IMG/VR virus record: IMGVR_UViG_3300048691_000181
Span: 1-64,000 of that record
From: a virus
Reading direction: 5' to 3' (one strand)
Length of the DNA stretch: 64,000 bases
In this document: in pieces, positions 3,042 through 64,000 of the stretch
How the letters are laid out: each line of letters opens with the position of its first letter
Position numbering within the stretch: position 1 is the stretch's first letter
Made by a program: the position numbers and the translations under genes
Notes under the pieces: model-generated
The model's database searches: none
What the model was told of the DNA's origin: nothing
What the model saw: only the letters and a program-made list of their open reading frames with translations

Positions 3042-4559
3042 TTACTGGTTACGGAAAGACACAGTCGAATTTGTATCTCCTTTTTCCATTGGATTGGCTA
3101 TGCCATTTTGTTGGCATATCCATTCAAGGAAATAGTCGGAGTGACCGTGAATCCGTGTAAACATGGATTGAACCTCAGTCCCATATTTCTCGGCATGTGC
3201 CTGAACGTTCATAACGAACTGACGTTTACAAGCCGTAATAACGGGGAATTGAGTATCCCCTAACTTATTTGCTGAATCTCCTCTCCAAGAAACTTGGAGC
3301 CTGTTATCACATTCTTCTCCATCGCAGAAAAGAAAGATATTAGAAGCCGAATGGCTTGGATTGGACTTTATGTCCTTCTCAACTGTAGCAAAGAAGTCGT
3401 ACTCGAATATGCCTCCGCCTTGCAGCTTGTACTTTCTTTCGAGTTTATCTCCTGCATCCATTGAGAATATATTCTCAAATAATGCAAGTCTATCTTCTTC
3501 ATTGAGCTTTATGTGAAGCCCAATGTCTTTTCCATTATTTGGTGCACTTGTATCTCCAGAGAACCAAATTTCACATTCTTCGCACACCAGCGATAGCATA
3601 TATGCCATAAGTATAGCAGCATGCCTTCGCTCCATCCTTCCTCCTCCGCCAGAAGCGATTGGGTGCTTCATACTTCCAGACCAGTCAATTCCGATATGTG
3701 TCATGCCAGGAATCTTTTTAATTCCCTTGTGTGTGAACATATTGAATATCAGCTCTTGAAACAATGGAGCGAAAGAGCTATTGTTCACAGCATTAGCATT
3801 CAGCTCGGTTTTATAGAGAACCGTAGGTGGCATCAAGCCTTTCGGCATTTTTGCACGCAGGTTCTCTTCGAGCCATGCTCTATCTATGCCTAACTCATCG
3901 GCAAATGGCATCGAATTGATGTACGCGATTACATTCAATTCGATTAGCTCCATCTTGGCTTGGTCAATAGACAGAGCTTTGAATGCACTTGGCATCGAAG
4001 TGTTTCCCCAACGAGACAACGTCTCTAACTTCTCCCAGTTCACCTTTGACAGTTTACCGATTGAAGTTGCGCTGTTCGCTTTTGTATATGTTTCATATAC
4101 CTGTCTAAGTTGTGGAAGAACAGGTAAGGTAGGTTCGTCGAGCAGTATCGTATCGATGAGTGGTCTGACCGTGCTGGTCAAGGACATACCTACTACACGG
4201 AACTTCATGATATGCTCGAACAGTTTTTGAGCTTCACTTTCTTTCAGAAAGACAGAAGCCCAATGTATCGTATACATCAGTATTGGCTGATGTAGTAGGA
4301 GTTCAGGTACGAAGCTCGCCAATGCAGGCGTAGGCGCGTACTTGAAAACAATAACTATGTATGCCGCGATAGAACTTTGAAGCTTGGCCAATTGCATCAA
4401 ATTCTTTGCAGCGTCGTAATCGTCGTAGATTAAATCTACGTCATGAGATTGGCTCTTAATCAATGGCTCAATCTCGTTAACAACAACTTTTTGGACGAAG
4501 CTGTCATTTTCCTGCAATATGAATTGCGAGAAAATTCCAGCTAACGTTTTTTTTTTCAT
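3042..4559 (-). CDS. divergent Ro60/Rsr-like TROVE + vWA protein
   Basis: C-terminal vWA with MIDAS GIDWSGSM followed by RRHAAILMA, IFLFCDGEECD, FVMNVQA and FTRIHGHSDYFLEWI, resembling bacterial TROVE C-termini; helical N-terminal two thirds; 505 aa. Confidence 0.7.
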   Translation of the reverse strand: MKKKTLAGIFSQFILQENDSFVQKVVVNEIEPLIKSQSHDVDLIYDDYDAAKNLMQLAKLQSSIAAYIVIVFKYAPTPALASFVPELLLHQPILMYTIHWASVFLKESEAQKLFEHIMKFRVVGMSLTSTVRPLIDTILLDEPTLPVLPQLRQVYETYTKANSATSIGKLSKVNWEKLETLSRWGNTSMPSAFKALSIDQAKMELIELNVIAYINSMPFADELGIDRAWLEENLRAKMPKGLMPPTVLYKTELNANAVNNSSFAPLFQELIFNMFTHKGIKKIPGMTHIGIDWSGSMKHPIASGGGGRMERRHAAILMAYMLSLVCEECEIWFSGDTSAPNNGKDIGLHIKLNEEDRLALFENIFSMDAGDKLERKYKLQGGGIFEYDFFATVEKDIKSNPSHSASNIFLFCDGEECDNRLQVSWRGDSANKLGDTQFPVITACKRQFVMNVQAHAEKYGTEVQSMFTRIHGHSDYFLEWICQQNGIANPMEKGDTNSTVSFRNQ

Positions 4560-8144: not shown

Positions 8145-8984
8145 CTAAATCCTCCGAATGCCATTTACCCGAACCCAAGAGATGGGCTGGGTTGGTTTTG
8201 AAGGGAGATACTTGACAATCAGACAGAATCCCTTATCAGGGAAACTGTAAAAAATGTAAGCAAATCCACCTTCCTCAATGGCGCTCATGTTCTCGAGCTC
8301 CACCAATGGGAGCTCTTTGCCCATGATTTCTAATTGAGCTCTCGAATCGGTCAAGAAACGAATACGAAGAGGCACTGAATCTGCGTTGTACGCCGTTTGT
8401 TCTTTTGGAACAAACGCATACTGTGCAGACACAGAATAGCCCGTTAGAATGAAAAGAAATGCCACTGTAAGTACTTTCAACCCCTTCTTAGGGGGTTTCA
8501 CCATCCATAATATAATTGTGATTAGCACCAATAGCAAAACTGGGAACCAGCTACCATGCGAAGTACCAGAAGGTACTTCTATGATGTGACCATCAGCTTG
8601 AGCATTAGCTGAAACAAATAGGCTCATAGCTAAAGCGCTAAGACCTATTTTTTTCAGGAACTTACTCTCATTAAACACACCATCGACAAATCCCACTACT
8701 GCAAACAAGCAGAGTGCAATCGTCAAAAATCCCATCATTCCAGTAGGGTCTGGATTAGGATGATGGACTGCTACAGTCTCTTGAGCCACAGCCAAGAATG
8801 GCATAGTTACAAGAGCCGAAATTGCCCTTGTTGTGTGGCACCCTTTGCCCAATGCCGAAAAGCAAAGGGTCATGAAAACTGCTCCTGCAATAATGGAGCA
8901 CGCTACGACTTCGGACATCGTAGCGAATAAAAGGCAGACTACTGCCATTCCGAGGGTGGCCAATTGGCCTGTTTGTTTTGTCAT
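8145..8984 (-). CDS. multi-pass membrane protein with repeated signal-peptide-like segments
   Basis: Hydrophobic segments ending in AVAQ, ANAQ and VSAQ, preceded by basic residues. Confidence 0.65.
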   Translation of the reverse strand: MTKQTGQLATLGMAVVCLLFATMSEVVACSIIAGAVFMTLCFSALGKGCHTTRAISALVTMPFLAVAQETVAVHHPNPDPTGMMGFLTIALCLFAVVGFVDGVFNESKFLKKIGLSALAMSLFVSANAQADGHIIEVPSGTSHGSWFPVLLLVLITIILWMVKPPKKGLKVLTVAFLFILTGYSVSAQYAFVPKEQTAYNADSVPLRIRFLTDSRAQLEIMGKELPLVELENMSAIEEGGFAYIFYSFPDKGFCLIVKYLPSKPTQPISWVRVNGIRRI

Positions 8985-9251
8985 TTTTAAAATGAAGTTT
9001 TTAAAGTAAAACTTAATCGGGGTAGTAGCCTAAGCCACTACCCCAGAAAAGAAACTTTGTTCTCAATCACAAGAACAGATTCAACCTCCTAACTGGAGCG
9101 AGGAACCTGTTTTTCTTTAGTCTAAGCGTACTTCTCTAACTTTCCGATACATTATAAGGGAGCATGAAAAGAAGTGCTTAGAAAGCAATTATTTTAAAAG
9201 GGAAAGGGAAGCTAATTCACAAATGAGAAAAGAACCCAATCCCTAATATTG

Positions 9252-9343
9252 TCGCATGTTTGGGACTCGAACCCAAATCTTTTCTCTATTGAAGAAGAAC
9301 GTGTCACCTCCCTCTCTTATCAAGAGGCTACCACCGACATGCG
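9252..9343 (-). tRNA. tRNA-like RNA with a hairpin inserted in the D arm and an 8-nt loop CUUCAAUA (UCA-containing)
   Basis: Acceptor CGCATGT/ACATGCG; T arm TTGGG-TTCGAGT-CCCAA; anticodon arm TTCTT-CTTCAATA-GAGAA. Confidence 0.6.
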
Positions 9344-9534
9344 TAAAACTCGTTCTGGAATCTAAACACAACAAAAAATTCAGAACCAGAACGAGGTATC
9401 TTTCTCTAAGGGCGGCTCATTATAATTCGAGAACCCGAAGAGAAATTCCTTAATTTAGAAGAAGCTAAAAAACCGTGTTCAAGAAATAAGATTATTTCTC
9501 AAACACGGAACCTAAGAACTTCATCTAAAACTTG

Positions 9535-9607
9535 TGGACAGTACGGGACTCGAACCCGTGTCTTATGGTTTTTATGCCATCCAGTTACCGCTACTTTACA
9601 ACTGCCC
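9535..9607 (-). tRNA. tRNA-like RNA, 8-nt loop CAUAAAAA, identity undetermined
   Basis: Acceptor GGGCAGT/ACTGTCC; T arm ACGGG-TTCGAGT-CCCGT; ATGG-CATAAAAA-CCAT. Confidence 0.65.
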
Positions 9608-9680
9608 AATTTGACTACTTTTTTTAAGGGAACATAGTCATACCCCACTAAATCTAAATCTAAATCTAATAAAATTTTTT

Positions 9681-9869
9681 GACCCGTAAAGGATTGAAAC
9701 CTTTAGCCGATAATAAACCCAGTGACCAACTCTTTGATTCCCCCTTGTTCCCGAAGGAAGCTCGTGGAATGCTCGAATGGTGTACTTTATTTCGGTATGC
9801 CTATATTGTTCTTTGCATGCCATTCAACCTTGCGGAAGAAAGCGAAAGTAATAAATATAGATAACGGGT
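9681..9869 (-). ncRNA. about 190-nt RNA with tRNA-like ends and a pseudoknot-prone core
   Basis: ACCCGT/ACGGGT closing stem; T-arm-like AAAGG-TTTCAAT-CCTTT; internal CTATATT/AATATAG, TTGAATGG/CCATTCGA and TTCC-TTCG-GGAA. Confidence 0.45.
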
Positions 9870-9873
9870 ACTG

Positions 9874-9946
9874 AGGAGAAGACGGGACTCGAACCCGTAT
9901 AACCTGACTTTCAAGTCAGGTGCTCTACTAATTGAGCTACTTCTCC
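9874..9946 (-). tRNA. tRNA-like RNA, 8-nt loop CUUGAAAG
   Basis: GGAGAAG/CTTCTCC; D arm GCTC-AATTAGTA-GAGC; CCTGA-CTTGAAAG-TCAGG; T arm ACGGG-TTCGAGT-CCCGT. Confidence 0.8.
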
Positions 9947-9954
9947 ACCTCGGA

Positions 9955-10260
9955 TTAACCGAGCAATTCACCAGCCAAACGGCTGATGCTATTGATACGT
10001 TCCTTGTCAATACTGTAATAAATAAACTTGCCTTGGCGTTCCGTAGCAACAACACCTGCACGACGTAAAATAGCGAGGTGTTGCGAAGTAACTGATTGTT
10101 CCAAACGGAGTTTGGTGTACAATTCATTAACTGCCATCTTTTCGTTTTCTTCTAACAGCTCGAGAATTTGCTGACGGACCTTGTGGTTCACAGCGCGAAG
10201 AACCAATAGCGCTTTACGGATGTTGGCGTAGTCTGCTACGCCTTTTTTAATATTTTTCAT
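9955..10260 (-). CDS. ArsR/SmtB family transcriptional regulator
   Basis: LRAVNHKVRQQIL...V.EL...LEQSVTSQHLAILRRAGVVATERQGKFIYYS winged HTH, of the Bacteroidota type. Confidence 0.92.
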   Translation of the reverse strand: MKNIKKGVADYANIRKALLVLRAVNHKVRQQILELLEENEKMAVNELYTKLRLEQSVTSQHLAILRRAGVVATERQGKFIYYSIDKERINSISRLAGELLG

Positions 10261-10301
10261 TTTTAAATGAAATTTAAGTCTTGAGACATTTCAAGACCAA
10301 G

Positions 10302-10374
10302 TGCGCCCTAAAGGAATCGAACCTTCTACCTCTTGCAAACCTAAGCAAGTGCTCTGCCATTGAGCTATGGACAC
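10302..10374 (-). tRNA. tRNA-like RNA, 8-nt loop UUAGGUUU
   Basis: GTGTCCA/AGGGCGC; D arm GCTC-AATGGCA-GAGC; CTTGC-TTAGGTTT-GCAAG; T arm GAAGG-TTCGATT-CCTTT. Confidence 0.75.
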
Positions 10375-10380
10375 AAAACC

Positions 10381-11100
10381 ATCACGTAGAAACTAATCTA
10401 CGTCCCAGACGCTTCTCTTTGAGAAATCAAAGAGAAGCTGTTTAATCCGAGCATTTCAACTCGGTATCTAACTTTTTTATTACATCTTATCCAGAAGGTT
10501 AATTACGCCTCCTGAATAAGATGCTCACTCTCTTTACCAGTCTTTGCCAGAGATACTGGGATTCTACGTGCAATAGTAGGTAATACACTCCTTGCGGAGG
10601 AAAGGCTCCTTGCGGACACCAAGCACGAATAAGGAAAATCTATCCTTTAATAGCCCTGTTATTTAACAGGGAAATGTGGATTCGCACCACATTTAGAATC
10701 TTTCTACTCCAAGCCACTCCTATTCTATTAGATTGTTAGTGGTACTCGTAATTGGTACTTAATTTTTTAAGAGTGATTTAGCCGACCAATCAGCAAACCT
10801 TCACTCCGAGCCACTCTGTTTTTCAGTGGCAACTCTTCTTCGTAATCTCCTCTACTCCCATCTCCTCTAAACTCTACGCTTGCAATCGTAAAGAATAAAG
10901 TTGAATCAGCCTCTCGGCAATTAGAGAATCCTTCCCAGTCTCTCTCTGGGCTTCTTTCCGTTGCGTATACTACGGGTCATTTGTGGTTTAAGGCTTGAAG
11001 TTTTACCACAATTCGTTGGACTATGATTGTCCATAGCACCCTGCTTTCACCCTGCAGGTCGAGGCTCGATTGGTCGCCCTTGAATTAGGGCGAGCCTCTA
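10381..11100 (-). ncRNA. large ornate non-coding RNA candidate (about 720 nt)
   Basis: No ORF >=60 aa in the track; more than 12 hairpins, two TCC-GCAA-GGA tetraloops, T-loop-like AAATGTGG-TGCGAAT-CCACATTT, a long-range 9-bp complement; flanked by tRNA-like genes. Confidence 0.65.
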
Positions 11101-11154
11101 ATATTTAATTTCATTAAATTGAATATTATTCTCACCAACATTGGTGAGACAAAG

Positions 11155-11227
11155 TGGTAGTGAAAGGACTCGAACCCTCTTTCCCCTTCGTTTTATAACG
11201 AAGCGCTCACCCATGAGCTACACTACC
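11155..11227 (-). tRNA. tRNA-like RNA, 8-nt loop UUAUAAAA
   Basis: GGTAGTG/CACTACC; D arm GCTC-ATGGGT-GAGC; CTTCG-TTATAAAA-CGAAG; T loop TTCGAGT. Confidence 0.75.
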
Positions 11228-11244
11228 TTATCCTTAATGCCGTA

Positions 11245-11922
11245 TCAATGAATCAATACGGCATTAAGGTCAATTGCTGCCCATAATTTAGACCCGACAG
11301 CAAGGTCTCTTTCCTTAATGACTATATCTCTGAAAGAATAATAGTCATTAAGGTTTTTAACTTGGAACGCAAATGCATAGAGTAGCATCTGCGCCAGTAA
11401 ATCCTCGGGTAAGATAAAACCCGAGAAGTATTTGTTCTCCACACGTGACGCTTTGGCATATTTGCCTTCAAAGTCATAGTGGCCTGCATTTGAGTATCTG
11501 TTCGCAACACATTGTTGCACATCAGATACTATATTCAAATGGATAGACCCAGAAGAGTCTATCTTGCATTGCCTCAACTGACGTGTGAAGCGTACGACCG
11601 AGGACACGAAGTCACTCGGTTTCAGTGTGGGAAATAGCTGGACAAGTTCCAGCTCTCTCCCGACATAGGGATGAGTAGTATAACGGCTATGCTTAAAGCC
11701 GTTATATACGTGAAGTTTGGAGTGGTAATTGGTATCCACTCGGGTTTCTTCCCCGAATTTATACTCCAGCTCAATTCCAACCTTGTCGATGCCCTTGAAC
11801 AAGAGCCTGAAACAGGCATACATGGAAGGACTCCATGATGCCTGATTCAAACCCTTACCCAAACCGCGAAACAGGGCAGCTATAAGCCACCCCATTTCGC
11901 GGGTTTTGTATTTTGTTCCCAT
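11245..11922 (-). CDS. putative amidoligase (COOH-NH2 ligase fold) protein
   Basis: Ordered motifs VGIELEY, ELE, SGSIHLNI and RVENKYF resemble amidoligase/glutamate-cysteine-ligase-like enzymes. Confidence 0.5.
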   Translation of the reverse strand: MGTKYKTREMGWLIAALFRGLGKGLNQASWSPSMYACFRLLFKGIDKVGIELEYKFGEETRVDTNYHSKLHVYNGFKHSRYTTHPYVGRELELVQLFPTLKPSDFVSSVVRFTRQLRQCKIDSSGSIHLNIVSDVQQCVANRYSNAGHYDFEGKYAKASRVENKYFSGFILPEDLLAQMLLYAFAFQVKNLNDYYSFRDIVIKERDLAVGSKLWAAIDLNAVLIH

Positions 11923-12269
11923 TAGAAAAGCAATGGAAATTTGTTTTTAATCTTCTGCTCCTCCGTAGAAGGAAGAGCGTTGAAGATTGAACGAAAATTG
12001 CTCGCATTCCAATTTGAGCAGCTTTGGGGATTGATACCGCCCTCTGCCAATTCGGACAGGATGCAGAATAGTCCGCCTGTTTTGCAGGCGCGCTCCCAAT
12101 CGATACTGGGAATGTTAGTTGATTTGATAACGGTTTCAGCAACGGGGACAACTGGTACAACAGGAGCCGTCATAAGGGAAGCCAACATAGCCTTCCCTTC
12201 TTTCGTTGTGAGCTTCAATCCAGCAGCTCGTACAGCAGCCTTAGCTGCTTCGTTTGTCAATCCAGTCAT
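11922..12269 (-). CDS. hypothetical protein
   Basis: 115 aa; TAATG coupling with the next gene. Confidence 0.65.
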   Translation of the reverse strand: MTGLTNEAAKAAVRAAGLKLTTKEGKAMLASLMTAPVVPVVPVAETVIKSTNIPSIDWERACKTGGLFCILSELAEGGINPQSCSNWNASNFRSIFNALPSTEEQKIKNKFPLLF

Positions 12270-12524
12270 TGTTAGATGAGTTTTATGGATTCATGAGCAT
12301 GCAATATCGCAGCTCACTTATTCTTGACCACGCAGAACAACTATGTTTTTTATGACATAACCCGCGTGGCAATTTCTTAGTCAGTCTCTTCAGCTATGGT
12401 AGACTAATTCCATAGGACAGCACGAAGGCTGTTTCGACTTTAACCGATAAAGAAATAAAAACTGGGGCTATCTAACGATACAGACAACCCCAGAACAAAA
12501 AATTTATTTCTTAACCAACTCATG

Positions 12525-12595
12525 CGAAGGGAATAGGACTCGAACCCTACTCTAACAGGACTAAACCTGTCGCGCACCCATTGCACTTCCCCTTC
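12525..12595 (-). tRNA. tRNA-like RNA, 6-nt loop UUUAGU
   Basis: GAAGGGG/TCCCTTC; GTGC-AATGGGT-GCGC; ACAGG-TTTAGT-CCTGT; GGTTCGAGTCC. Confidence 0.65.
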
Positions 12596-12705
12596 CTACT
12601 TAACATTGCACGGATTAATGACCGTGCTCAATTTGCCAATTCCGTTTCACTCCATTTGCCAATGAACGTGTGTTGCTAACCCTGCAACAAGGTTTCAAAA
12701 GAGAA

Positions 12706-12909
12706 CTACAATTGGCTCTCTACCGTCTCCACACTTAACATAACCGAAGCGGTTACGCCATTGTGGAGAAAAGTTCCCCAATAATGGGGCATGAAATCGT
12801 CACTTCCCAATCCGAAAACATCGCTGCCTTCTTCCTTGGTGCACTTAGTAGATAAATCTACGAGTGCAAGGGTTTTTACCCCAAAGTGGTTAAAATACAC
12901 TTTTTTCAT
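12706..12909 (-). CDS. hypothetical protein
   Basis: 67-aa ORF starting immediately after a T-arm-bearing element. Confidence 0.5.
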   Translation of the reverse strand: MKKVYFNHFGVKTLALVDLSTKCTKEEGSDVFGLGSDDFMPHYWGTFLHNGVTASVMLSVETVESQL

Positions 12910-12984
12910 GACAAGAACAAAGGAATCGAACCTTCATGCTTAGAATTTACCTTACGTTCACTCCTCATTACGAGGCTTACTTGT
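12910..12984 (-). ncRNA. degenerate tRNA-like element
   Basis: ACAAG/CTTGT ends, CCTC-GTAAT-GAGG hairpin, T arm GAAGG-TTCGATT-CCTTT. Confidence 0.35.
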
Positions 12985-13422
12985 AAGTGCTAAACACCCT
13001 ACCCAATGTAGGATTCTTGTTGTCTTATTGGCTGTTAAAAAATAAGATAATGTCTTAATCAGAGCTAACCAACACTCACTCTGATTAAGAACACTAAATT
13101 CACTCATTCTATACACCCTGTCAAATGACGTTATCTTGACAGACAGGCATGTACACGGTTGAGGGAAACCGTTATTTTTTTTAGCTTTAAATTTTGACCG
13201 TTCAAAAGAACACGCTTTGAGCCTAACAAACTGTTTTACTTCGCTCAAACGAAGAATCGTACACGCCAAGAAGCATACAATTGAAAACAATAATAAAATA
13301 AAAAAGAATTGGTTGCACATACAACAATAATTATTGCATGTGCAAACAATTGAACGGCTTTTTAAGGCATATTTGAGGTACAAATATTGCTATTTATACC
13401 TCAAAATACCTTAAACTTTTTC

Positions 13423-14124
13423 CTAAAAATCGAAACCGATTTTATAGGAAGATTTTACGATGTCTGTGGCGTTGTTTGATAACCACAGTCCGTTTGCCAC
13501 TGCAAACTTGCTGTCAAGTACGCTACCAATTTCGGCGGAGGCTAAAAAGCCAGCCGTAAACTTTACGGCTTGTGTTTGGTCTTCAAATCTCTTTGTTGGA
13601 GCAATGCCAATATTGAACGCAACCTCCTTTGAAGTTCCTTTAGCATCAACAAGATGCCCTTTTACCCCGTAACACAGGGTTGTGCTTGGCAAACTTGTTG
13701 CGTTACCAGCAAATTCCTTGCTAAAGATTCGAGTAACGAAAAGTTTTCCGCCTTTTATAGCATTAATAATACTGGTCTCTAATGCTAATCGGTCACTCAT
13801 TTTCCAAATTCCATTTTCCATTACGTAGCCTAATGAGGCTATCGTTGAATCAAACGAGATTCCACCTTTAGCGGTGAAATTGCTAAATGGAACAGACGCC
13901 AATGAAACAGCTAATGCTGTTACGGCTTTGAGTGTTTCAGCGTTCCGCGTAGCGATTGGTGTTGCACCAACCTGAGTAGCAGGAAATTCTACACTATTAC
14001 GCGTATATACATCTTCCAAATCCGCATCTTGCGACAATGTGAAATATGTTTCAAGTTTAGTGTTTGGTTCTTGGATGTTTGCATCCGTTAAGGCTTTAAT
14101 AGCCTTGCCTTTGGTAAGTGTCAT
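13423..14124 (-). CDS. hypothetical protein, first gene of the left arm
   Basis: Track ORF 13423..14268; plausible start MTLTKGKAIK at 14124. Confidence 0.65.
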   Translation of the reverse strand: MTLTKGKAIKALTDANIQEPNTKLETYFTLSQDADLEDVYTRNSVEFPATQVGATPIATRNAETLKAVTALAVSLASVPFSNFTAKGGISFDSTIASLGYVMENGIWKMSDRLALETSIINAIKGGKLFVTRIFSKEFAGNATSLPSTTLCYGVKGHLVDAKGTSKEVAFNIGIAPTKRFEDQTQAVKFTAGFLASAEIGSVLDSKFAVANGLWLSNNATDIVKSSYKIGFDF

Positions 14125-14285
14125 ATCGTTATGATATTTAAAGAGTAAAGAATGTCTTGTCCGTTTCAGAAACGTAACACAACTCGCAAATTTTAAAGAG
14201 TTTTGAACTCTAACCAGATTCCAAGCATCCCTACCCGTGTGGGGGGGGCTGTCTTTGACTCTCGTCAAATCTATACTGGAGTGTA

Positions 14286-14371
14286 TTGGGGAACCACACG
14301 CTAATTTTTTTACATAAATTTTTTTTTGGGGAAAAACCAGACGCTAATATTTTTATATTTTTTTTGGGGAA
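14286..14371. repeat. about 40-nt direct repeats (TTGGGGAA..CCA.ACGCTAAT + T-tracts) at the divergent junction
   Basis: Two full units plus a third TTGGGGAA; a G8 run lies just upstream. Confidence 0.7.
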
Positions 14372-14628
14372 GCAAGTAAAAGTGAGATACCATATATATA
14401 AGCGATTAGACATTTTAAGTTTTAGTTAAATAGGTCTTAAATACCATAGTAGCAAGCATACTAAACACGTTTTTTAATGGTTATTTAGTTAAGAAAGTGT
14501 TAAGATTTAGAGATGCTGGTTGGTGTTCCAGTAGTATGTTTAATACAGTTATAACTGTATGTTTGTATACATTATACCAGTATATTTTAATCGAGAGATT
14601 ATATTTTGTACTTTTTTTTTACGTAGCT

Positions 14629-14660
14629 ATTGACATTTGAGTTGCAGTAGTGTATCTTTG
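14629..14660 (+). promoter_or_regulatory. Bacteroidota sigma-A-type promoter
   Basis: TTG, 20 nt, then TATCTTTG (TAnnTTTG -7 box), 19 nt before ATG 14680. Confidence 0.65.
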
Positions 14661-14679
14661 TTAAAAAAGATAAAACAAC

Positions 14680-15222
14680 ATGGAAATGAGACAACGATAT
14701 AAAAGAGGAAAGCTTGCGACTTATATTGACCCTGATACAGGAGAGTTAATAGAGTTAACTCCTTCTTATATTCAGAACTATGTTGCGAATGATGGAGAGT
14801 CTTTTTACCAATTGTATGCTGGCTTTATTGGATTATTGCAAGATGGTGTAGAGAAATCAGAGATGAAGATATTTGGCTATTTGCTTGAACATTACATGCA
14901 TAACAATGTCTTCAATATAGGAAAGGCAGTAAAGCAAGACATGGAAGATAGATTAGGGGTAAAGCTAAGAACTATAGAGGGATGTTTAGTTTCTCTAAGA
15001 AAACCGAGAGGAGATGGAACAGCTTTATTACTATATAACACTTCAAACAAAAGTTACTGTATTAATCCAAGATATGTGATACAGAGTTTTGATGGTAAAG
15101 ATGCTCGACTTCAAAAGATTAAGATTTGCCTATCCAATGGATTTGAACCTATTAACTTTTTAAAAAAGAAACAAAATGCAAAGGACGTTCCTGATGATTC
15201 AGAAAGAAAACAACAAGGATAG
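14680..15222 (+). CDS. RepL-like winged-HTH protein
   Basis: EMKIFGYLL...KQDMEDRLGVKLRTIEGCLVSL...SYCINPRY resembles RepL-type HTH proteins. Confidence 0.55.
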   Translation: MEMRQRYKRGKLATYIDPDTGELIELTPSYIQNYVANDGESFYQLYAGFIGLLQDGVEKSEMKIFGYLLEHYMHNNVFNIGKAVKQDMEDRLGVKLRTIEGCLVSLRKPRGDGTALLLYNTSNKSYCINPRYVIQSFDGKDARLQKIKICLSNGFEPINFLKKKQNAKDVPDDSERKQQG

Positions 15223-55135: not shown

Positions 55136-58100
55136 ATGGACGAACAAGGACAAGACCCGTTTGCAGGAGGACTGCAACCACTAAAGAATACATACCAAAG
55201 ACAATTTCAGACATTAGATAAGCCGACAGAAATGGAGGCTTATAATGAATACGATAGAGGCTTTATTCCTAATTCAGGAATGAGTCAAGAACACAATAGA
55301 GCAAATAACCAGTCAAGTGGAGACTTACTTGCTAAGGCTGTTAAACGCTTAGCAATCTCTACTCCATTAAAGTTTGCTGAAAGTATCTCAGACTTAGGAG
55401 GTTTCTTGACAGGAACTTCAGCTATGGACAATCCATTATCTGTTGGATTAAGACAAGCAGAAGATGCATGGAAAGAAATGAATCCTGTTTATCGTTCTCA
55501 AAAGTATGACGAAGGAACAGTATGGGACAAGATGACATCTGGTTCATTCTTAGCTAATGACCTTATTGATGGTGTGGCTTATATGGCTTCAGCATGGGGT
55601 GGTACAAAGCTGATTGGTGCTGGTGTAGGAATGGCACTGAAGGCTACTATGCCTGAATTGGCATTAGCAGAAGCAGCAATGGCTAATGGTCAACAATTGA
55701 GTGGCGGTTCTAAGTTTGTCCAGACACTTCTTAATCGTGGCTTAGACGCCAATAATATTACACGTGGTACTGTAACAGCTTTAAATACGATTTCAGAAGC
55801 AACAGCAGAATCCGTAGACTCTTATACTCAAGTCAAACAAAACTTGCTCAGAAAGAAGCAATTAGGGCTTATGGGCCATTCTGGTTATGAGGACTATGCA
55901 AATATAGGAGATGACCAAATAGAATCTGAAGCAAGAAGTGCTTATAAGGAAACCTTTGTTGGTAATGCGGCTATCTTAATCCTGCCTAACTGGTTAGAAT
56001 CTGGTTGGTGGTTAGGAAAAGCAGGTAAAGCAGGTGCTCGTGCAACCTTAACAACAGCTTTCAGAGCAGGAGAAACGCAATTGGCTCAAGAGGCAGAAAA
56101 AATGGGTTTCAAACATGGAGCTATTGCTTTTGCTAAAGGCTTTGCTACGGAAGGCTTATGGGAAGAGAATCTTCAAGGCGCACTTCAAATGTACGAGAAG
56201 TCTATCTCTGACCCGACACTCTCTAATCGCGATAGAGGGCTATTTCCTGGCATTGCAGGCACTTTAAAGAATTCAGCAACAAACTTAGCAGGGTTTAGCA
56301 AAAGTCTCTTAGGAGGCAATATTGATGCCAATTCAGAAGAAGGTCAAGGTGCTATCTCTATCTGGTTAGGCGGTGCTTTAGGCTCTCCTATGGCATTGAT
56401 GGGTCATTACCGTGAACAAGTGGACAATAAGAAACAGAGAACAGAACTTCAGGCTGAGTTAGATAGAGCACATCAGAATAGTAAAATATTAGGTCATGGA
56501 TTCAATAAAGAGATAAACTTTGCTGTTGACTCGATTGAGAAAGATGATACTGGAAAGATAAAGAAAGATGCTGAAGGTAATCCTATTATCAAGTTTGATA
56601 TAGAGAAGAAGACTCGAGATTTGATTTCAGGATTTTTTAAAGAGATGTCTGCTAACCATGCTGTTTTAGCGGATATGGCAGACAATGAAATCTATGGTGC
56701 TGTTAATACACATTTCTCTGCCTTCAACGCGGCTATGGAAATAGAACAGTCAAGATGGGATAAAGGGATTAAGGATGTCTTTGCTGAAAGATTGGTTAAA
56801 AACTTTGAAGAGATGTCTAAGGGAACAGAAGCTGTACCAGAAAGTAAAGACGAACAAGGCAATGTTATACCAGCTCAAGAAGCTGTTGAAGGAACGAATG
56901 TAGGTAGAGGACTTTTTAAATTAGAGCTCTTAAACTCTTATCGTGACTTGTACCGTAATGAATATCAAGCAGCCTATAACAAAGCATTTAGAAGCTTTGA
57001 CGGCAATGACGAGAACAAGAAACGTTTCTTATTAGACATGGTTCAGAATAGAACGATTGAGATGTTTAGGTTACAGATGTTAAAGAGCTTGAGAGATGGT
57101 AATGGTTCTCTAACAACAGATGGTTTAGCAGAACCCTATATCAAGTCTAAGCAAGGAAGAGAAGACATAGAGAAGTTGATTGCCGAGAAAGAAGCTCAAA
57201 TAGAAAAGTTTAATCTTAGGACAAACTCGAAAGGCATAGAAGCAATGTATGGAGAATATCAGAAGTCTCAATCGGTAGATGATGTTCAGGAAGCATTGGG
57301 TAATGCAGTAAAAGAAGTAGCAGATTTAACCAAAGAACTTTCTGCAACAACAGAAACAGAGGTAGAGCAAACAACTAAAGATGCAGACGGCAAAGATGTA
57401 GTGACTAAAGTAAAGCAACAAGTAGGCATTTCAGAAGAAAAAAGAAAAGAGCTGAATCGGAAGATTCAAGAAAAGAAGAATGAAGTATTTCTTAAACGTC
57501 AAGAATATGAAGAACAGGCTGGTATTCACGCTAAGTCTATCTCAACCAACTTTTATCATGATAAAGACCTTGCAAAAGATGCCTTAGCTGGTAAAGATGT
57601 TAGAGGAATGGGACGTTACCAATATGAAAGGTTAGCTCATTCAAGAACTAAGATAGGTGGTAGATTTAGTAGATACCAGAATAGAAGAATGGGTCAAGTT
57701 CAAGATAGTCTTATCGCTCAAGTAGCGGCTAATATTCAAGCGAATAGAGAAAAGATGGCAGGGGACTTAACCTTAGTTGACCGTGTTCAAGACTTGATGG
57801 ACCAATATGAAGATGCACTACTTAATCCTCAAGCAGGTTCAGAAGAAATACGTCAACAATTACAAGAAAATGAAGAGAAGTCTCATCTATTATATCAAGA
57901 AGAAAAAGATTTAGATTTAAGATATACAGAAGAATTAAAGTATGCAACAACTTCTTTGTTGCGAAATCGCATTGATAAGACTTTCCAAAAACAAAGAGCC
58001 TTATTAAGTGAAAGAAGAGAGCTGTTAATTAACGAGTATAAAAACTTAGAGCAAGAATATAAAGACTTTGCTGATGACAAAGCCTTAGATATTATTGAAG

Positions 58101-61100
58101 AAATGCTTCAACTGATAACCCAGAATCAACGTGTCTTATTTCAAGCTTCTTTGTTTGATGGTTCTGTTATAGCTAAGTTTATGAATTTGGTTGAGACCAT
58201 TAGAGATAAATCAGAAAAGGCAATAGTAGAATACAATGACCTTATTGAACAAAGAGATGAGTTAGGGCAGAAGATTCAAGAAGGTGTATTTGATAAACCT
58301 ATCATAGAAGGATTACGAGAACTAAAGAATATAGACCTATATGGAATTAAACCAGAATACTTCTTATCTACGCCTATTGTTAAAGATGAAGATGAAGATG
58401 GTAATGAATTTGCTTTAGGTTTTGGTATAAGACAAGGAACACATATCTTTCCTTCTAATTTTGATGATGTAGTTGAACTTCAAAAGAACTTATTAAAGGC
58501 AATTAAAGCAAAGGATGATGCGCTTAACCAATATAAAACTCTTTTAAGTCAAATAGACGAGAAAGATTCTCTAACACGTAAATATGCAAATATTCTTAAT
58601 GGAGCAGAAGCTACAGCTGCTTTACCAGAAAGGGCTGGTTTAGAAGAAGCAGTTACTAAATATAAAGAGCATGTTAAAGAAAGAAGTAAACTTAATCTTG
58701 AACACACTAAGCTAAAGGACTATGATAAGAAAGCTCAATTAGCAATAGAAACAGAATGGTTGGTCAATCCTAATGAAGCTTACTTTAGACAATATCTCGT
58801 AGAACAAAATACGGATGATGTCTTAAACGCATTGTCTATCGAGTTCTCGAACATAGCTGCTGGTAAACTCTTTGATTCAGCTTTCGATATTGACGATAAA
58901 TCTACATGGACTATTCTTCCCGATGTAGCTTTTACAATGCCATTGGTTACTGCACGCTACTTTAAAGAGAAGTTAGAGGAAATAGTCAATATGACTAAGC
59001 ATACAACAGAAGATGAGACAGCAAAAGGAATTATAGAAGCCTATAAGAAAGTGTCTCAAATAATGGGGATGGGTAAATATGAGATTACACTGCCTAAAGC
59101 TCTCGATATGCTAAATGCCATTATTGCACACGAAGACAATCGTCAGAACATTAATATTGGTAGAATGGAAGCCTTTGAGAAGAATCAGAAAGCGTCACAT
59201 CAAGAAGTCTTAGATATTATTCATGGTTCAGATGCAATTAAGCTGGATGACTCTTATGGCCTATTTCGTGAGCTGCAAGCGATTAAATCCAGCGAGCGGT
59301 CTACTAAGAAGGCTGATGCTTTAAAGAGCTTAGAAGCAAAAGAAAAGGCTATCTTGCTTGAAGTAGATACTTTGATTGCACAGATGGGCATAACAGCATT
59401 GCCATCTGGTTATGAGTCTATGTCTGGTACGACCAAGCTGAATGCACTCTTATTCTCATTAGGTGGACTAAGTTCTTTTCTCTCTTTAGCAGGAGGAGAA
59501 AAGTTAAATGAACAGATGCGTGTAGCATTTAAGTTTCATGCCTTTGTTCGTGTGCTTCAATCAACAGGAGACATCAATCAGACACTCTACGAGATTTCTA
59601 AGGACGCTAAGTTAAATGATACTCAAAAAGCACAACTTACTGGCTTAATCACAAAGCTTACTTCCCTCTCTCCGATTGAGACAGCACAAGGATATTTGAA
59701 TTCTACGATTGGTGATAAAGGGAAGAATGATGCTAAGTATCAGGCTTTTGTAAATATCTTAACCAGTATAGATAAAGCACCTATGGATGGATTAGGCTAT
59801 TCGCCCAACTATCTTCAGATGAATGCCTTTATCGAATCAGTTATCAACTTCGACTTATCTCAAAAAGAGAACGAATCTCGTGTTACAGGCCTTAAAAAGA
59901 AGTTCAATTCGGACTCATTCCCTCAAGATGTCTTAGCTAAAGAATATATTAAAGACTTAAACGATAGACCTTTAAATGCGAGTTTACTCTTAGGCGTTTC
60001 TGGTTCAGGAAAAACAATAGGTACTCAACTCTTAATCAAATATTACTTAGCTGCTGGTTCAGGAAATAGACCTTCTGAAACAAAGAGAGTTCTCTTAGTA
60101 GGACATACTTCTGCTTCTTCAGAGAATCTAAAGAACGAAGCTGTTAGAACTATTCCTGCTGCTAATGCGATGACTGCTGTAACCAATGTCGAGTTCTATA
60201 ACATGACACCAGAGCAGCGTTCAGAGTTTGATTTGATTATTGCAGACGAACAGTTTACTCTTTCTACGGATGAGTTTAGAATATTCCAGAACGCGGGGAG
60301 AAATGCGTACAATGACGAAGGTGGCCCAGCAGTCTATGGTAAAGACGGATTAAAGATTCTTCAAACACCTGTTCTATTTATTATGGGTGACTCTTCTCAA
60401 CCACGAGGAGAGATTATGAACTACCTGACTGATTTAGAATCTGTTAAAGATGCTGCATATAAGTCGGTTAAGAGACTAACGCCATTGTCTATTGGCTATC
60501 GCGCTTCTGTTCAAGCCATAGAGTCTGTTGCTTACCAGTTTAAGTCCAGCACAGAGCATGTCCAACTGGAAACAACTGAAGCCAACAAGACAATAGAAGA
60601 GTTTAGAATTCAAGATAAGAACGCTATTATTGCCGCTAATGATAACCAAGCTTTAAAGGAATCTTTGTCTATCATTGGACTTATCTCTGATAATGATGCA
60701 GATGAACAAACACGTCAGAATAAGATATTAGACTTGGTTACACTCTTAGACAATAATACATCCACAGAGAAGACTGTTATTATTGTAGCCAACGAGAAGA
60801 AGAAGCAAGCATATATTGAAGGTTTAGTTAGGCTTAGTCCAAACATTAAGCCTGATTACGCAAAAGAAGGAAGGATTCAAGTAATGACCTTTAATGACGT
60901 TCAAGGGAGAACCTTTGATAACGTCTTAATCGACTATGTACCTACGGACAAGATGGTTCAGAGAAGTGTTGTCTTTAATCCTGCAACAAGAAAATATGAA
61001 CAGAAATATACAGAGATAGCCTTAGCCGACTTACAATTAGCTGTCGGTTCAGAATACAAGAAGAACTCTAATGTCTATATGGCTATAACAAGAGGAAAGA

Positions 61101-64000
61101 AGTTTGTCTATATGAATGGTATTTCTCAAGCAAAGTTAGAGACAGATAATAAACTTCAGAAGCACGTTTTTTCAGGCACTAAGGAAGCAGAAGCATTAAG
61201 AAAGAATTATGAAGAGGTTAAGAAGAACTTTGGGGTACAGGTCAATCAAGCAGTCACTACGACGCCTATTGCACCAACTCCTGCTCCAGCTGCTTCTTCT
61301 ACGAATACAAATCCTCCTCCTGCTGCAACACCTCCTGCTCCACCAGTAGCACCAACTCCTGCTCCAACCAATCCCCCTCCTACACCCCCTGTTTCAGATA
61401 TAGATAATTCAACTCCTATTATAGATAATACTGTTGAAGAAGATGAGGACGAATTAACAGAAGATGCTTTAGCAGATGTGAATACAGATGGACTTATTGA
61501 AGAAGATAAACAAGATTATCAAGACCAGATAGACCATATTGGAATAGCTCAAGTTATTGCTGCTATCAATCCAGACTTCTTTGCTGAAGGTTCAGATAAG
61601 ATTATTCTTCAACACCCAGAGACAATAGAAGATATAACTATTAATGATGGTGATACACACCTCATGGTTAAGCAAAGATTTAGAATACGTCAAGGGCTGG
61701 AGAATATTCATCAAGATGGCATAGATTATACGGTAGTTTATCCTGCTGCTATTGACTCTATTCCTGTTGAAGGAACAACTATTCCTAATTCGATTACGGT
61801 GCCTATCTTCTCAAACACAAACGATGGCAAGAGAGTAACTGTTCAAGTATATGTGCCTCTGGTTACGAAAGAAGGAGAGAGAGAACGTTTTACGGGTAGA
61901 TATATCAATTCTGGAACATTTAGATATATGACAGAAGGTGTATTTAAGTCTGAAACAGAGCATCTTGGCATGGGATTAGACACTGTCTTAAATGATATGA
62001 ATTCTAATGAGATGAGTGAATATACGACAGAATCTAAATACTTCAATGGAACTACGCTTACTCAAAAAGAGATAGATGACCACAAGAAGGTCTTGAAGGA
62101 CAAAGGATTAGATACAGACTTGCTTATGCAAGAGATGGTTGTTCACGAACAATCAGATATGAACTTTAGAAACTATGACCCTACTAAGGCTGATTCCGAT
62201 AAGATGAAGTCTGTTTCTCAAACAATAATACAAGTACTTACTGACCTCAAGAGCAAGGATAACAACGTTAATGACTCTACGTTAGAAGCATTTATATCAG
62301 AGATAACAATAAACGAGAATGGTGTTATTCGATTAAATCCTAAGTTCCTATTAGACGGTCAAGCTAAAGTTCAGCAAAAACTACCTGCTATGTTATGGGA
62401 AATTTCTACGATGGCATTAGTTAATAGTAAATCAGAAAGAGGAGTGAACTTCTTATCTTCTGCTTCACCAGCATTAAAAGCAGCCTTTGGTCAAAAAGGA
62501 CGTTCTAATGGTATTTACGGTATGCCTGTTATTATTTTAAAGAATATTCCTATTGGTACTAAGAACGGTAAGACTACAATAAGAGATTTCTTTATTCCGC
62601 TTAACCAGCCTAAGATGCAAGCAACATCTGAAATTGTATCTACATTCACTTCGTTGAAGTCTAATCTGGATAACTTCAAAGCTGTTTTAGATGAAGTAGT
62701 AGCTTCCTTAGGAAGTGATGCAAGTACCGCTTCTATTTTAGGATTAGATGCGATTAAAGGAGAAGCAGAGAGAATAGAGAATAAGAATGGCAGAGAACGT
62801 GCATTAGCAAATGGCACTTCTCATATCGAGACAAACAATACGCAAACCAATCTTTTAAACACGTCTTTTCTTAATATGGTACTCTATGCTGGTCAAGACC
62901 TATTTGACCTTCAAGATGATACGTTTGCGCCCAAGACTATTTCTGATGCAGATATAAAGAAGGTGCTCTTAGATTCATTAAAGACATCATTTGAGGCGGC
63001 TAAGGAGAAGATAGTCTTAGAAATATTCAAGAATCAAAACTTAGGAAAGAATATAGATGAACTCTTAGCTAAGGATAAATCACCAGAAGCAACAAAGAGT
63101 AAGAGAGACCAATTAGCTAAGATTAAAAGGGAACAAGAAGATAAGATTAATTTCCCTCAATCAGAGACAAATATATTAGGAAGCCAATATGTCCTATTAA
63201 CGCAAGGAATAATTGCTTCACCAGCTGAAAAGCTTCAACAATTAAAGAATGTTATCGTACCAATGGTGTATGGTAATAAGGGCTCTTTCTTTGGTACAGC
63301 TCTAAAGAATAAGCCTTATACAGTAGAGCAAGTAGCAAAACAGACAGGAATTGAATCTGCAGCTGAAGTTGCTGGTAAGCAGCCTTCAGACTATCTTGCT
63401 GAAGAGATAATTAAACAATTTCTTTCTGGTTCAGACACCTTTAAGCAGTCTGATATAGGCTTTTATTTCAATCCTAACGAAGGAAATGAAGCTATGCAAA
63501 CTAAGAACGAGTCGGTTAAATTTAAGCTCTTAGAAGGCAAATTACCTGCTGTTGTTTATGCGTACTTGAATGCAATGAAGGATTCTTTAGATGGTAAAGA
63601 TGTGAATACGATTCAATTAGAAGAACTCTTTAACATAAGAAATAAATCTAAGATTAAAAATGATGCTGCCTTTACTTCATATCAAGAGTTAAAGGACGAG
63701 ATAGCTAAATTAAATTTCAAGAAATTTAATTTTACCACAGAAACGACACCTCGAGAAATCTTAGAAAAGACTAAAGGATTTGACCTTAAAGCTTCTTTGG
63801 CTTCTAAGGCTCTCGAACACTTTGCTAAGGCTAACTATAAGATTAAGGATGAGAATGGCAACGAGAAAAGGCTCTTAATGTCTAAGCAAGATAAAAACAA
63901 TCAGACTGCTGAACAAAGGTCTAAAACAGGTAGACAAGCACAATTCAATGTCTTTGCTCGTTTAACAGAGACTAACTTCAACTTTGCATCAAGACAAAAG
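55136..64000 (+). CDS. giant (>2950 aa) virion-associated protein with an SF1 helicase domain, truncated by right edge
   Basis: ATG 55136; same frame at 59981 and at the window end; absent from the track, consistent with no stop; motifs GVSGSGKT, IIADEQ, MGDSSQ, YR, VQGRTFDNV and YMAITRG. Confidence 0.8.
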   Translation, partial: MDEQGQDPFAGGLQPLKNTYQRQFQTLDKPTEMEAYNEYDRGFIPNSGMSQEHNRANNQSSGDLLAKAVKRLAISTPLKFAESISDLGGFLTGTSAMDNPLSVGLRQAEDAWKEMNPVYRSQKYDEGTVWDKMTSGSFLANDLIDGVAYMASAWGGTKLIGAGVGMALKATMPELALAEAAMANGQQLSGGSKFVQTLLNRGLDANNITRGTVTALNTISEATAESVDSYTQVKQNLLRKKQLGLMGHSGYEDYANIGDDQIESEARSAYKETFVGNAAILILPNWLESGWWLGKAGKAGARATLTTAFRAGETQLAQEAEKMGFKHGAIAFAKGFATEGLWEENLQGALQMYEKSISDPTLSNRDRGLFPGIAGTLKNSATNLAGFSKSLLGGNIDANSEEGQGAISIWLGGALGSPMALMGHYREQVDNKKQRTELQAELDRAHQNSKILGHGFNKEINFAVDSIEKDDTGKIKKDAEGNPIIKFDIEKKTRDLISGFFKEMSANHAVLADMADNEIYGAVNTHFSAFNAAMEIEQSRWDKGIKDVFAERLVKNFEEMSKGTEAVPESKDEQGNVIPAQEAVEGTNVGRGLFKLELLNSYRDLYRNEYQAAYNKAFRSFDGNDENKKRFLLDMVQNRTIEMFRLQMLKSLRDGNGSLTTDGLAEPYIKSKQGREDIEKLIAEKEAQIEKFNLRTNSKGIEAMYGEYQKSQSVDDVQEALGNAVKEVADLTKELSATTETEVEQTTKDADGKDVVTKVKQQVGISEEKRKELNRKIQEKKNEVFLKRQEYEEQAGIHAKSISTNFYHDKDLAKDALAGKDVRGMGRYQYERLAHSRTKIGGRFSRYQNRRMGQVQDSLIAQVAANIQANREKMAGDLTLVDRVQDLMDQYEDALLNPQAGSEEIRQQLQENEEKSHLLYQEEKDLDLRYTEELKYATTSLLRNRIDKTFQKQRALLSERRELLINEYKNLEQEYKDFADDKALDIIEEMLQLITQNQRVLFQASLFDGSVIAKFMNLVETIRDKSEKAIVEYNDLIEQRDELGQKIQEGVFDKPIIEGLRELKNIDLYGIKPEYFLSTPIVKDEDEDGNEFALGFGIRQGTHIFPSNFDDVVELQKNLLKAIKAKDDALNQYKTLLSQIDEKDSLTRKYANILNGAEATAALPERAGLEEAVTKYKEHVKERSKLNLEHTKLKDYDKKAQLAIETEWLVNPNEAYFRQYLVEQNTDDVLNALSIEFSNIAAGKLFDSAFDIDDKSTWTILPDVAFTMPLVTARYFKEKLEEIVNMTKHTTEDETAKGIIEAYKKVSQIMGMGKYEITLPKALDMLNAIIAHEDNRQNINIGRMEAFEKNQKASHQEVLDIIHGSDAIKLDDSYGLFRELQAIKSSERSTKKADALKSLEAKEKAILLEVDTLIAQMGITALPSGYESMSGTTKLNALLFSLGGLSSFLSLAGGEKLNEQMRVAFKFHAFVRVLQSTGDINQTLYEISKDAKLNDTQKAQLTGLITKLTSLSPIETAQGYLNSTIGDKGKNDAKYQAFVNILTSIDKAPMDGLGYSPNYLQMNAFIESVINFDLSQKENESRVTGLKKKFNSDSFPQDVLAKEYIKDLNDRPLNASLLLGVSGSGKTIGTQLLIKYYLAAGSGNRPSETKRVLLVGHTSASSENLKNEAVRTIPAANAMTAVTNVEFYNMTPEQRSEFDLIIADEQFTLSTDEFRIFQNAGRNAYNDEGGPAVYGKDGLKILQTPVLFIMGDSSQPRGEIMNYLTDLESVKDAAYKSVKRLTPLSIGYRASVQAIESVAYQFKSSTEHVQLETTEANKTIEEFRIQDKNAIIAANDNQALKESLSIIGLISDNDADEQTRQNKILDLVTLLDNNTSTEKTVIIVANEKKKQAYIEGLVRLSPNIKPDYAKEGRIQVMTFNDVQGRTFDNVLIDYVPTDKMVQRSVVFNPATRKYEQKYTEIALADLQLAVGSEYKKNSNVYMAITRGKKFVYMNGISQAKLETDNKLQKHVFSGTKEAEALRKNYEEVKKNFGVQVNQAVTTTPIAPTPAPAASSTNTNPPPAATPPAPPVAPTPAPTNPPPTPPVSDIDNSTPIIDNTVEEDEDELTEDALADVNTDGLIEEDKQDYQDQIDHIGIAQVIAAINPDFFAEGSDKIILQHPETIEDITINDGDTHLMVKQRFRIRQGLENIHQDGIDYTVVYPAAIDSIPVEGTTIPNSITVPIFSNTNDGKRVTVQVYVPLVTKEGERERFTGRYINSGTFRYMTEGVFKSETEHLGMGLDTVLNDMNSNEMSEYTTESKYFNGTTLTQKEIDDHKKVLKDKGLDTDLLMQEMVVHEQSDMNFRNYDPTKADSDKMKSVSQTIIQVLTDLKSKDNNVNDSTLEAFISEITINENGVIRLNPKFLLDGQAKVQQKLPAMLWEISTMALVNSKSERGVNFLSSASPALKAAFGQKGRSNGIYGMPVIILKNIPIGTKNGKTTIRDFFIPLNQPKMQATSEIVSTFTSLKSNLDNFKAVLDEVVASLGSDASTASILGLDAIKGEAERIENKNGRERALANGTSHIETNNTQTNLLNTSFLNMVLYAGQDLFDLQDDTFAPKTISDADIKKVLLDSLKTSFEAAKEKIVLEIFKNQNLGKNIDELLAKDKSPEATKSKRDQLAKIKREQEDKINFPQSETNILGSQYVLLTQGIIASPAEKLQQLKNVIVPMVYGNKGSFFGTALKNKPYTVEQVAKQTGIESAAEVAGKQPSDYLAEEIIKQFLSGSDTFKQSDIGFYFNPNEGNEAMQTKNESVKFKLLEGKLPAVVYAYLNAMKDSLDGKDVNTIQLEELFNIRNKSKIKNDAAFTSYQELKDEIAKLNFKKFNFTTETTPREILEKTKGFDLKASLASKALEHFAKANYKIKDENGNEKRLLMSKQDKNNQTAEQRSKTGRQAQFNVFARLTETNFNFASRQK

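Follow-up and report, generated by a model that had tools for sequence, protein, structure and literature searches.

On the minus strand of a freshwater phage genome, two tRNA-like genes directly enclose a block of about 0.78 kb (10375-11154) that contains no ORF and is dense in hairpins. The window, i.e., the whole 64,000-nt stretch of DNA that was analysed, comprises the first 64 kb of an IMG/VR record of 106,963 bp, which is complete according to CheckV, and DNA of this phage was found again in freshwater metagenomes. We treat the block as a candidate non-coding RNA on the basis of its lack of ORFs, its negative coding score, its MFE z-score, its number of stems and the absence of a match in Rfam. 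A preliminary description of the window had delimited the block as 10381-11100 and had noted tRNA mimics on both of its sides; the mimics are confirmed as two tRNA-like genes on the same (minus) strand, and the bounds are corrected here to 10375 and 11154.

Genomic setting and coding status

The major capsid protein of the phage falls in the crAss-like capsid family and shares less than 30% identity with the capsid proteins of cultured crAss-like phages of Flavobacterium, Bacteroides and Cellulophaga, so that the phage can be regarded as a deep-branching freshwater crAss-like phage. Rightward genes, including the structural genes and a giant ORF of 6327 codons, occupy 14.7-78.6 kb of the genome, leftward genes occupy 78.7-107 kb and 1-14.3 kb, and the left arm has the higher G+C content (0.42-0.45 vs. 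0.35-0.38). The 6327-codon ORF is a single reading frame on the plus strand that covers 55136-64000 of the window, runs on to genome position 74119 and is followed by an ORF of 1484 codons; it is very large even by the standard of the virion RNA polymerase region of crAss-like phages. For an ORF of 505 codons at 3042-4559 (minus strand), no Pfam or NCBIfam match was obtained at E ≤ 0.01, so that profile searches lend no support to a Ro60/TROVE-like identity. Additionally, a second gene-free gap of 901 bp is located in the leftward arm at genome positions 80830-81730, with 7 local stems compared to 1.7 expected, and this gap showed neither a match in Rfam nor similarity to the block at 10375-11154.

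The block is part of an RNA-rich island (approximately 8985-13420), which also contains at least four tRNA-like genes and a pistol ribozyme. On its upstream (5’) side lies the tRNA-like gene at 11155-11227 (minus strand; 43.9 bits with the Rfam tRNA model, ARAGORN anticodon ataa), which has an 8-nt anticodon loop and no encoded CCA, and on its downstream (3’) side the tRNA-like gene at 10302-10374 (minus strand; 45.2 bits, ARAGORN anticodon aggt), again with an anticodon loop of 8 nt. Two further tRNA-like genes on the minus strand, at 9874-9946 and 12525-12595, pass the Rfam tRNA threshold, resulting in four such genes in the island by Rfam and ARAGORN, fewer than had been counted by eye. ARAGORN assigned four-base anticodons (8-nt loops: tgaa, aggt, ataa) to three of these four genes, none of the four encodes a CCA end, and only the element at 9874-9946 resembles ordinary phage tRNAs, being 77-81% identical to tRNA-Ala and tRNA-Gly genes. 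The pistol ribozyme (13193-13254, minus strand; 54 bits vs. a gathering score of 34.5) sits inside the weak ‘ORF141’ (12958-13383), which has a poor coding score and probably does not represent a gene. The ribozyme would cleave the leftward transcript to which the tRNA look-alikes also belong.

Across 8800-14800 we counted 26 terminator-like sites compared to 5.3 expected, and strong minus-strand terminator-like hairpins at 12462-12493 and 9473-9508 bracket a larger unit. Inside the block, no promoter motif of the Bacteroidota -7 type was detected. The ArsR-family gene that adjoins the block, ORF101 (9955-10260, minus strand), encodes an ArsR/SmtB-family winged-helix regulator (NF033788, 8.6e-22) and is 65-81% identical to a gene that is widespread in metagenome contigs from varied habitats, including marine ones, where it often occurs in tandem pairs; ORF101 looks host-derived. 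A RepL-like gene is located 3.5 kb away from the block.

The description of the block as ORF-free holds throughout: every one of the six frames contains at least ten stop codons, and reassigning any single stop codon yields no open stretch longer than 120 codons. Moreover, a codon-usage score trained on the phage’s own genes is negative for the block in all six frames, and positive for the neighbouring ORFs in their own frame. The block is almost certainly non-coding. What we find is a long ORF-free stretch adjoining tRNA-like genes in a phage, a feature that it shares, in a generic sense, with the large non-coding RNAs of tRNA islands. Since the tRNA-like genes and the neighbouring ORFs all lie on the minus strand, this is the likely RNA strand, the RNA running from 11154 to 10375. 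The G-U pairs in the block also favour the minus strand (15 vs. 7), but we do not count this as evidence for the strand, given that in ordinary genes such an imbalance tracks GC skew. Overall, the non-coding status and the exact position between two tRNA-like genes, and not the folding energy, single out the block.

Predicted structure and the hairpin-rich arm

The block contains 11 perfect local stems of at least 7 bp compared to 1.2 expected, a number reached by none of 100 shuffles, which agrees with the stem density noted earlier. As a whole, it also folds far better than dinucleotide shuffles (z = -10.5 for the minus strand, -8.2 for the plus strand), but the neighbouring coding genes of the arm are just as structured or more so. 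Stability is highest in the plain perfect hairpins at both ends of the block: the 3’ end, with four plain hairpins and stems of up to 17 bp, reaches z = -8.7 and the 5’ end z = -6.0, and in neither case was any of 200 shuffles as stable. For four of the seven sub-blocks, the folding energy does not stand out from that of shuffles (z of -0.5 to -1.8), among them the sub-block with the twin GCAA hairpins described below, and long-range complements of 7, 8 and 9 bp occur at chance level (P = 0.34, 0.88 and 0.26 vs. shuffles). With long-range pairs at chance and more than half of the sub-blocks behaving like shuffled sequence, the global ‘ornate’ fold of the preliminary description is unsupported.

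Sliding windows of 200 nt revealed that the whole leftward arm is abnormally structured and that the block is not special in this respect. Coding ORF225 (11245-11922) reaches z = -5 to -12.7 in such windows and carries 11.8 stems per kb, and despite this hairpin excess it looks coding by codon-usage score; the windows over 1-8.6 kb average a z of about -3.5, and the leftward genes tested contain 4.6-11.8 perfect stems (≥7 bp) per kb, nearly all of them 3-10 times over shuffles. For the rightward structural genes, window z-scores are near 0 and perfect-stem counts are as expected. Considering that the leftward arm is saturated with hairpins, coding sequence included, folding energy alone cannot identify RNA genes here, and the result of this arm-wide control may matter as much as the candidate RNA.

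Read from 5’ to 3’ on the minus strand, the block begins with a terminal hairpin with an 8-bp stem (11130-11149, pair probability 0.94), followed by a near-palindromic 13-bp hairpin consisting of A and U only (11099-11128, from the inverted-repeat list and the predicted fold) and by a predicted composite hairpin (11061-11098) with its loop at 11080-11087 and a 3’ bulge that holds CGACCAAUC, one partner of a 9-bp complement. The second partner, GAUUGGUCG, is found in a predicted hairpin of the form GGAGUGA/UCACUCU with a small inner hairpin (10770-10807). This complement, for which a pseudoknot or kissing interaction had been suggested, does join 10783-10791 to 11068-11076; however, 9-bp long-range complements being at chance in the block (P = 0.26), the ‘pseudoknot’ pair by itself is no evidence. 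The composite hairpin is followed by a predicted 7-bp hairpin with a 17-nt loop (10981-11011) and by the 5’ arm (10933-10945) of a long-range helix, in which 12 of 13 positions are paired with the 3’ arm at 10549-10561 (pair probabilities 0.6-0.8 for both arms). In the thermodynamic model this helix closes a central domain of about 400 nt; by our estimate, about 0.2 long-range pairs of this kind are expected by chance.

We also observed a perfect 10-nt complement between 11028-11037 of the block and 10364-10373, i.e., positions 2-11 of the downstream tRNA-like gene, where about 0.05 such complements would be expected by chance according to our estimate. Pairing between the two could compete with cloverleaf folding and thereby gate processing. 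The same spot of the block, 11028-11037, is able to form two mutually exclusive small hairpins.

The central domain contains the duplicated module, whose presence at about 10703 and 10800, with a spacing of 97 nt, was confirmed. Copy 1 (10800-10850, by repeat comparison and fold) consists of AUUACGA, a hairpin GCCACU/AGUGGC and then CUCGGAGU, and copy 2 (10703-10758, by repeat comparison) of AUUACGA, a hairpin CCACU/AGUGG and then CUUGGAGU. Both copies share, in one and the same order, a 13-mer (12 of 13 positions identical), a 5-mer and a 7-mer, and the duplication looks non-random by our estimate. AUUACGA, CCACU and AGUGGCUYGGAGU are almost unchanged while the loops and spacers have diverged, which suggests constraint on those blocks. 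Just 5’ of copy 1, in a purine-rich stretch at 10845-10869 (minus strand), UAGAGGAGAU occurs twice, 15 nt apart; the two copies resemble Shine-Dalgarno sequences and have no suitably placed start codon.

A five-way junction of 141 nt (10617-10757), closed by 13 pairs including 3 G-U pairs, is predicted with pair probabilities of 0.9-0.99 and has a z of -4.7, none of 200 shuffles being as stable. Within its bounds lies an 8-bp hairpin with the 7-nt loop UGCGAAU (10672-10694, from sequence and predicted fold), which had been described as T-loop-like: the hairpin is present, but its loop is one base off the usual UUCGAAU. The two adjacent short hairpins with GCAA tetraloops, described earlier as twin TCC-GCAA-GGA hairpins, were found at 10588-10616 as a repeat; taken alone they are weak (sub-block z = -0.5). 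The motifs GATTCTA and TAGAATC, which were proposed to close a multiloop, do occur at 10560-10566 and 10694-10700, but the probability of that multiloop is essentially zero in the thermodynamic ensemble; forcing it costs 7.8 kcal/mol, and the model prefers the five-way junction together with the 12/13 helix. Towards the 3’ end, a 17-bp hairpin with 3 G-U pairs (10482-10524, pair probability 1.00) and a perfect 12-bp hairpin (10411-10438, predicted fold and inverted repeat) are followed by the 3’-terminal 7-bp hairpin (10384-10403) and then GAUGGUUUU, which by fold and terminator scan are weakly terminator-like and stand directly before the downstream tRNA-like gene.

Family models, relatives and strain variants

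No Rfam 15 family (4227 models) matched within the block at gathering scores, and none convincingly at E ≤ 10, the sole hit at that level being a chance-level RybB at 10373-10441 (19 bits vs. a gathering score of 40). Models for OLE, HEARO, RNase P, tmRNA, Y RNA and group I/II introns gave no match in the block, and the other gene-free gaps of the genome are likewise without an Rfam match. Furthermore, the GOLLD model RF02032 (conserved 3’ domain) yielded no hit at E ≤ 10 over the whole 106,963-bp record, with 20 candidate places scored, and the ROOL model RF03087 gave none over the whole record either, with 4 candidates scored; the control genomes were also without a ROOL hit, which limits the weight of the negative ROOL result. 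Membership in GOLLD or ROOL, one of the two options left by the preliminary description, is thus rejected on both the family models applied to the whole phage and the Rfam-wide scans, and the block RNA possibly represents a new class.

Searching for relatives by sequence, we compared the block and the whole RNA island with 50,697 phage records by blastn, and only one tRNA-like gene was matched, to ordinary phage tRNAs. In IMG/VR, neither ORF225 nor the GroEL-like gene used as anchors retrieved a relative, ORF101 led to two loci that are both densely coding upstream and lack the RNA, and the capsid led to relatives at 47% and 23% identity only. A metagenome scan with ORF101 recovered 80 loci of the widespread ArsR-family gene, none of them with the RNA, and in a genome collection both ORF225 and a 22-nt motif remained without a match; when compared with a database of 5.8 billion protein clusters, ORF225 proved to be an orphan. 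Pattern scans of IMG/VR returned 16 hits for the module and 98 for the twin-GCAA arrangement, the spacing of the latter suggesting coding repeats, and, apart from the motif, none of the loci fetched in either scan was similar to the block. A covariance model of the five-way junction, run on the phage and four related records, recovered nothing but the junction from which it was built, a self-comparison of the genome revealed no paralogue of the block, and 20-nt matches to two related phage records turned out to be T-rich low-complexity sequence. Altogether, no homologue of the block was retrieved from GenBank phages, IMG/VR, the metagenome scan or the genome collection.

Strain variants were obtained by aligning contigs from four other freshwater runs to the region. 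One contig of 943 nt covers 10262-11184, and hence the block in full; over these 923 nt it carries 48 substitutions, plus 16 gap letters, so the block persists at about 5% divergence. It has three indel events: 1 nt is inserted at a hairpin junction, 9 nt are deleted from a linker, and the loop of the hairpin at 11077-11090 is exactly flipped. All three fall at predicted unpaired positions, an outcome with a probability of about 0.1 by chance according to our estimate. In two other metagenomes the loop of the hairpin at 11077-11090 is exactly inverted, from CCCT-TGAATT-AGGG to CCCT-AATTCA-AGGG, as deduced from indels at 11081 and 11086 in runs X4 and X5; this inversion is a DNA-level flip at an inverted repeat. 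In the loose end of a more diverged contig (X6), the 5’ part of the 10981-11011 stem is kept before the loop diverges, and the one change in the stem still pairs as G-U on the minus strand. Taken together, the variants lend slight support to a folded RNA. Low-depth contigs from other freshwater runs, in addition, lead directly from one tRNA-like element into another, without the intervening sequence (9879-10367, 9943-12920 and 12521-12912), and in one case the whole block is missing along with ORF225 and ORF115. Either cassettes may be shuffled by recombination at the tRNA look-alikes, or these contigs may be repeat artefacts.

Interpretation and comparison with known systems

The reading that we favour, with a probability of roughly 45%, is that the block encodes a non-coding RNA of about 0.78 kb which is freed from a leftward polycistronic transcript at its tRNA-like flanks, and which would be an orphan among the large phage RNAs of tRNA islands. 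In the simplest arrangement, a single leftward transcript would carry ORF115, ORF225, a tRNA-like element, the block, a second tRNA-like element, ORF101, a further tRNA-like element and more, and each tRNA-like element would mark a site at which this transcript is divided. Given the good acceptor and T arms of the flanking elements, the block would most likely be freed by the tRNA-processing enzymes of the host: RNase Z or exonucleases would cut after the upstream tRNA-like element, and RNase P would cut at the 5’ end of the downstream tRNA-like gene, creating the 3’ end of the block RNA. The predicted product of about 0.78 kb would consist mainly of some 20 local stem-loops, with the very stable plain hairpins at its ends presumably protecting it from exonucleases, and with a more elaborate middle formed by the 141-nt five-way junction, the tandemly duplicated two-hairpin module and the two GCAA-tetraloop hairpins. 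As to its function, we can only guess that, together with the odd tRNA look-alikes, it might serve as a scaffold or decoy for host factors that bind or cleave RNA. A bolder version, which we consider rather unlikely, would see a new class of phage RNAs of about 0.8 kb, excised by tRNA look-alikes with 8-nt loops and forming with them and the pistol ribozyme a self-processing ‘RNA island’, in which the RNA acts as a scaffold, cage or decoy that captures tRNA-targeting or RNA-degrading factors of a Bacteroidota host.

As the main rival reading, the block might instead be a hairpin-rich intergenic spacer without a fold or function of its own, which we regard as quite possible, if only tentatively. 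Its stems would then be independent local elements, i.e., processing sites, terminators or attenuators, mRNA-stability hairpins, or the product of an arm-wide inverted-repeat process, for which DNA-level template switching is a candidate. Several of the results above fit a spacer well, as the excess of hairpins is found throughout the arm, with equal strength inside coding ORFs, long-range pairs do not exceed chance, the greatest stability resides in the plain perfect hairpins at the ends, terminator-like sites are enriched across 8800-14800 and no homologue was found; the loop flip between strains, moreover, is a typical DNA-level event at inverted repeats. A mere spacer is harder to reconcile with the compactness of phage genomes, the present one being tightly packed elsewhere yet leaving 780 non-coding bases precisely between two tRNA-like genes, and with the significant stability of the 141-nt multi-branch domain. 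The mosaic conservation of the duplicated module, which suggests constraint, and the retention of the block in a variant of about 5% divergence with indels in unpaired places only point in the same direction.

The remaining alternatives appear less probable still. The block could carry at least one tiny protein gene whose untranslated regions are structured, given minus-strand short ORFs of 37-39 codons such as the 37-codon ORF with an ATG start at 10921-11034 (minus strand); this is improbable, considering that the codon-usage score is negative in every frame, that these ORFs are no longer than expected at the given G+C content and that most of the block lies outside of them. We are equally sceptical of a DNA-level element, i.e., a replication origin, a packaging site or a regulator-binding region whose inverted repeats act in DNA. 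The A/T-only palindrome at 11099-11128, the many perfect inverted repeats, and the nearby genes for an ArsR-family DNA-binding protein and a RepL-like protein would suit such an element, but iterons or repeated binding motifs are lacking in the block, its G+C content is no lower than that of its neighbours, it is framed by RNA genes on one strand, and several of its stems need G-U pairs, which exist only in the minus-strand RNA. A very divergent GOLLD or ROOL member missed by the covariance models would agree in size class, phage origin and tRNA-island context, and GOLLD was first discovered in lake metagenomes; with no hit at E ≤ 10 even under permissive filters, and with all 20 GOLLD and 4 ROOL candidates having failed, we consider this highly improbable.

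The favoured reading, an RNA released at tRNA-like flanks, can be compared with several known systems. The tRNA operon of phage T4 contains species 1 and 2, stable non-coding RNAs of roughly 140 nt that are co-transcribed with tRNAs and released by tRNA-processing enzymes, whereas the block is about 780 nt in length and its flanks have abnormal 8-nt anticodon loops. In MALAT1/mascRNA and in mitochondrial tRNA punctuation, a tRNA-shaped element recruits RNase P/RNase Z and sets the end of the neighbouring RNA; these systems are eukaryotic or organellar, while the processing that we infer for the block would take place in a phage.

GOLLD and ROOL are large RNAs of phages and prophages which are often located near tRNA islands and form RNA-only cages, their function being unknown, and tRNAs are sometimes located inside the GOLLD linker (bioRxiv 10.1101/2024.12.08.627333). 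Like GOLLD (RF02032), the block is phage-encoded, measures about 0.8 kb, has many stem-loops and lies in or beside a tRNA cluster; unlike GOLLD, it shows no family-model match, no covariation-supported fold and no sign of multimer-forming kissing loops. With ROOL (RF03087) it would share the character of a large phage or prophage RNA, often found by tRNA islands, and it differs in the absence of a model match and in the host group, the phage being a freshwater crAss-like one, presumably of Bacteroidota. If the block does give rise to a discrete folded RNA, it would provide an unrelated example of the GOLLD/ROOL type from a deep-branching freshwater crAss-like phage, with ends set by abnormal tRNA look-alikes and with a self-cleaving ribozyme nearby. 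This would widen the class of large tRNA-island RNAs and offer a system for studying the link between tRNA islands and giant RNAs, the resemblance to GOLLD and ROOL being, as judged from context, one of kind.
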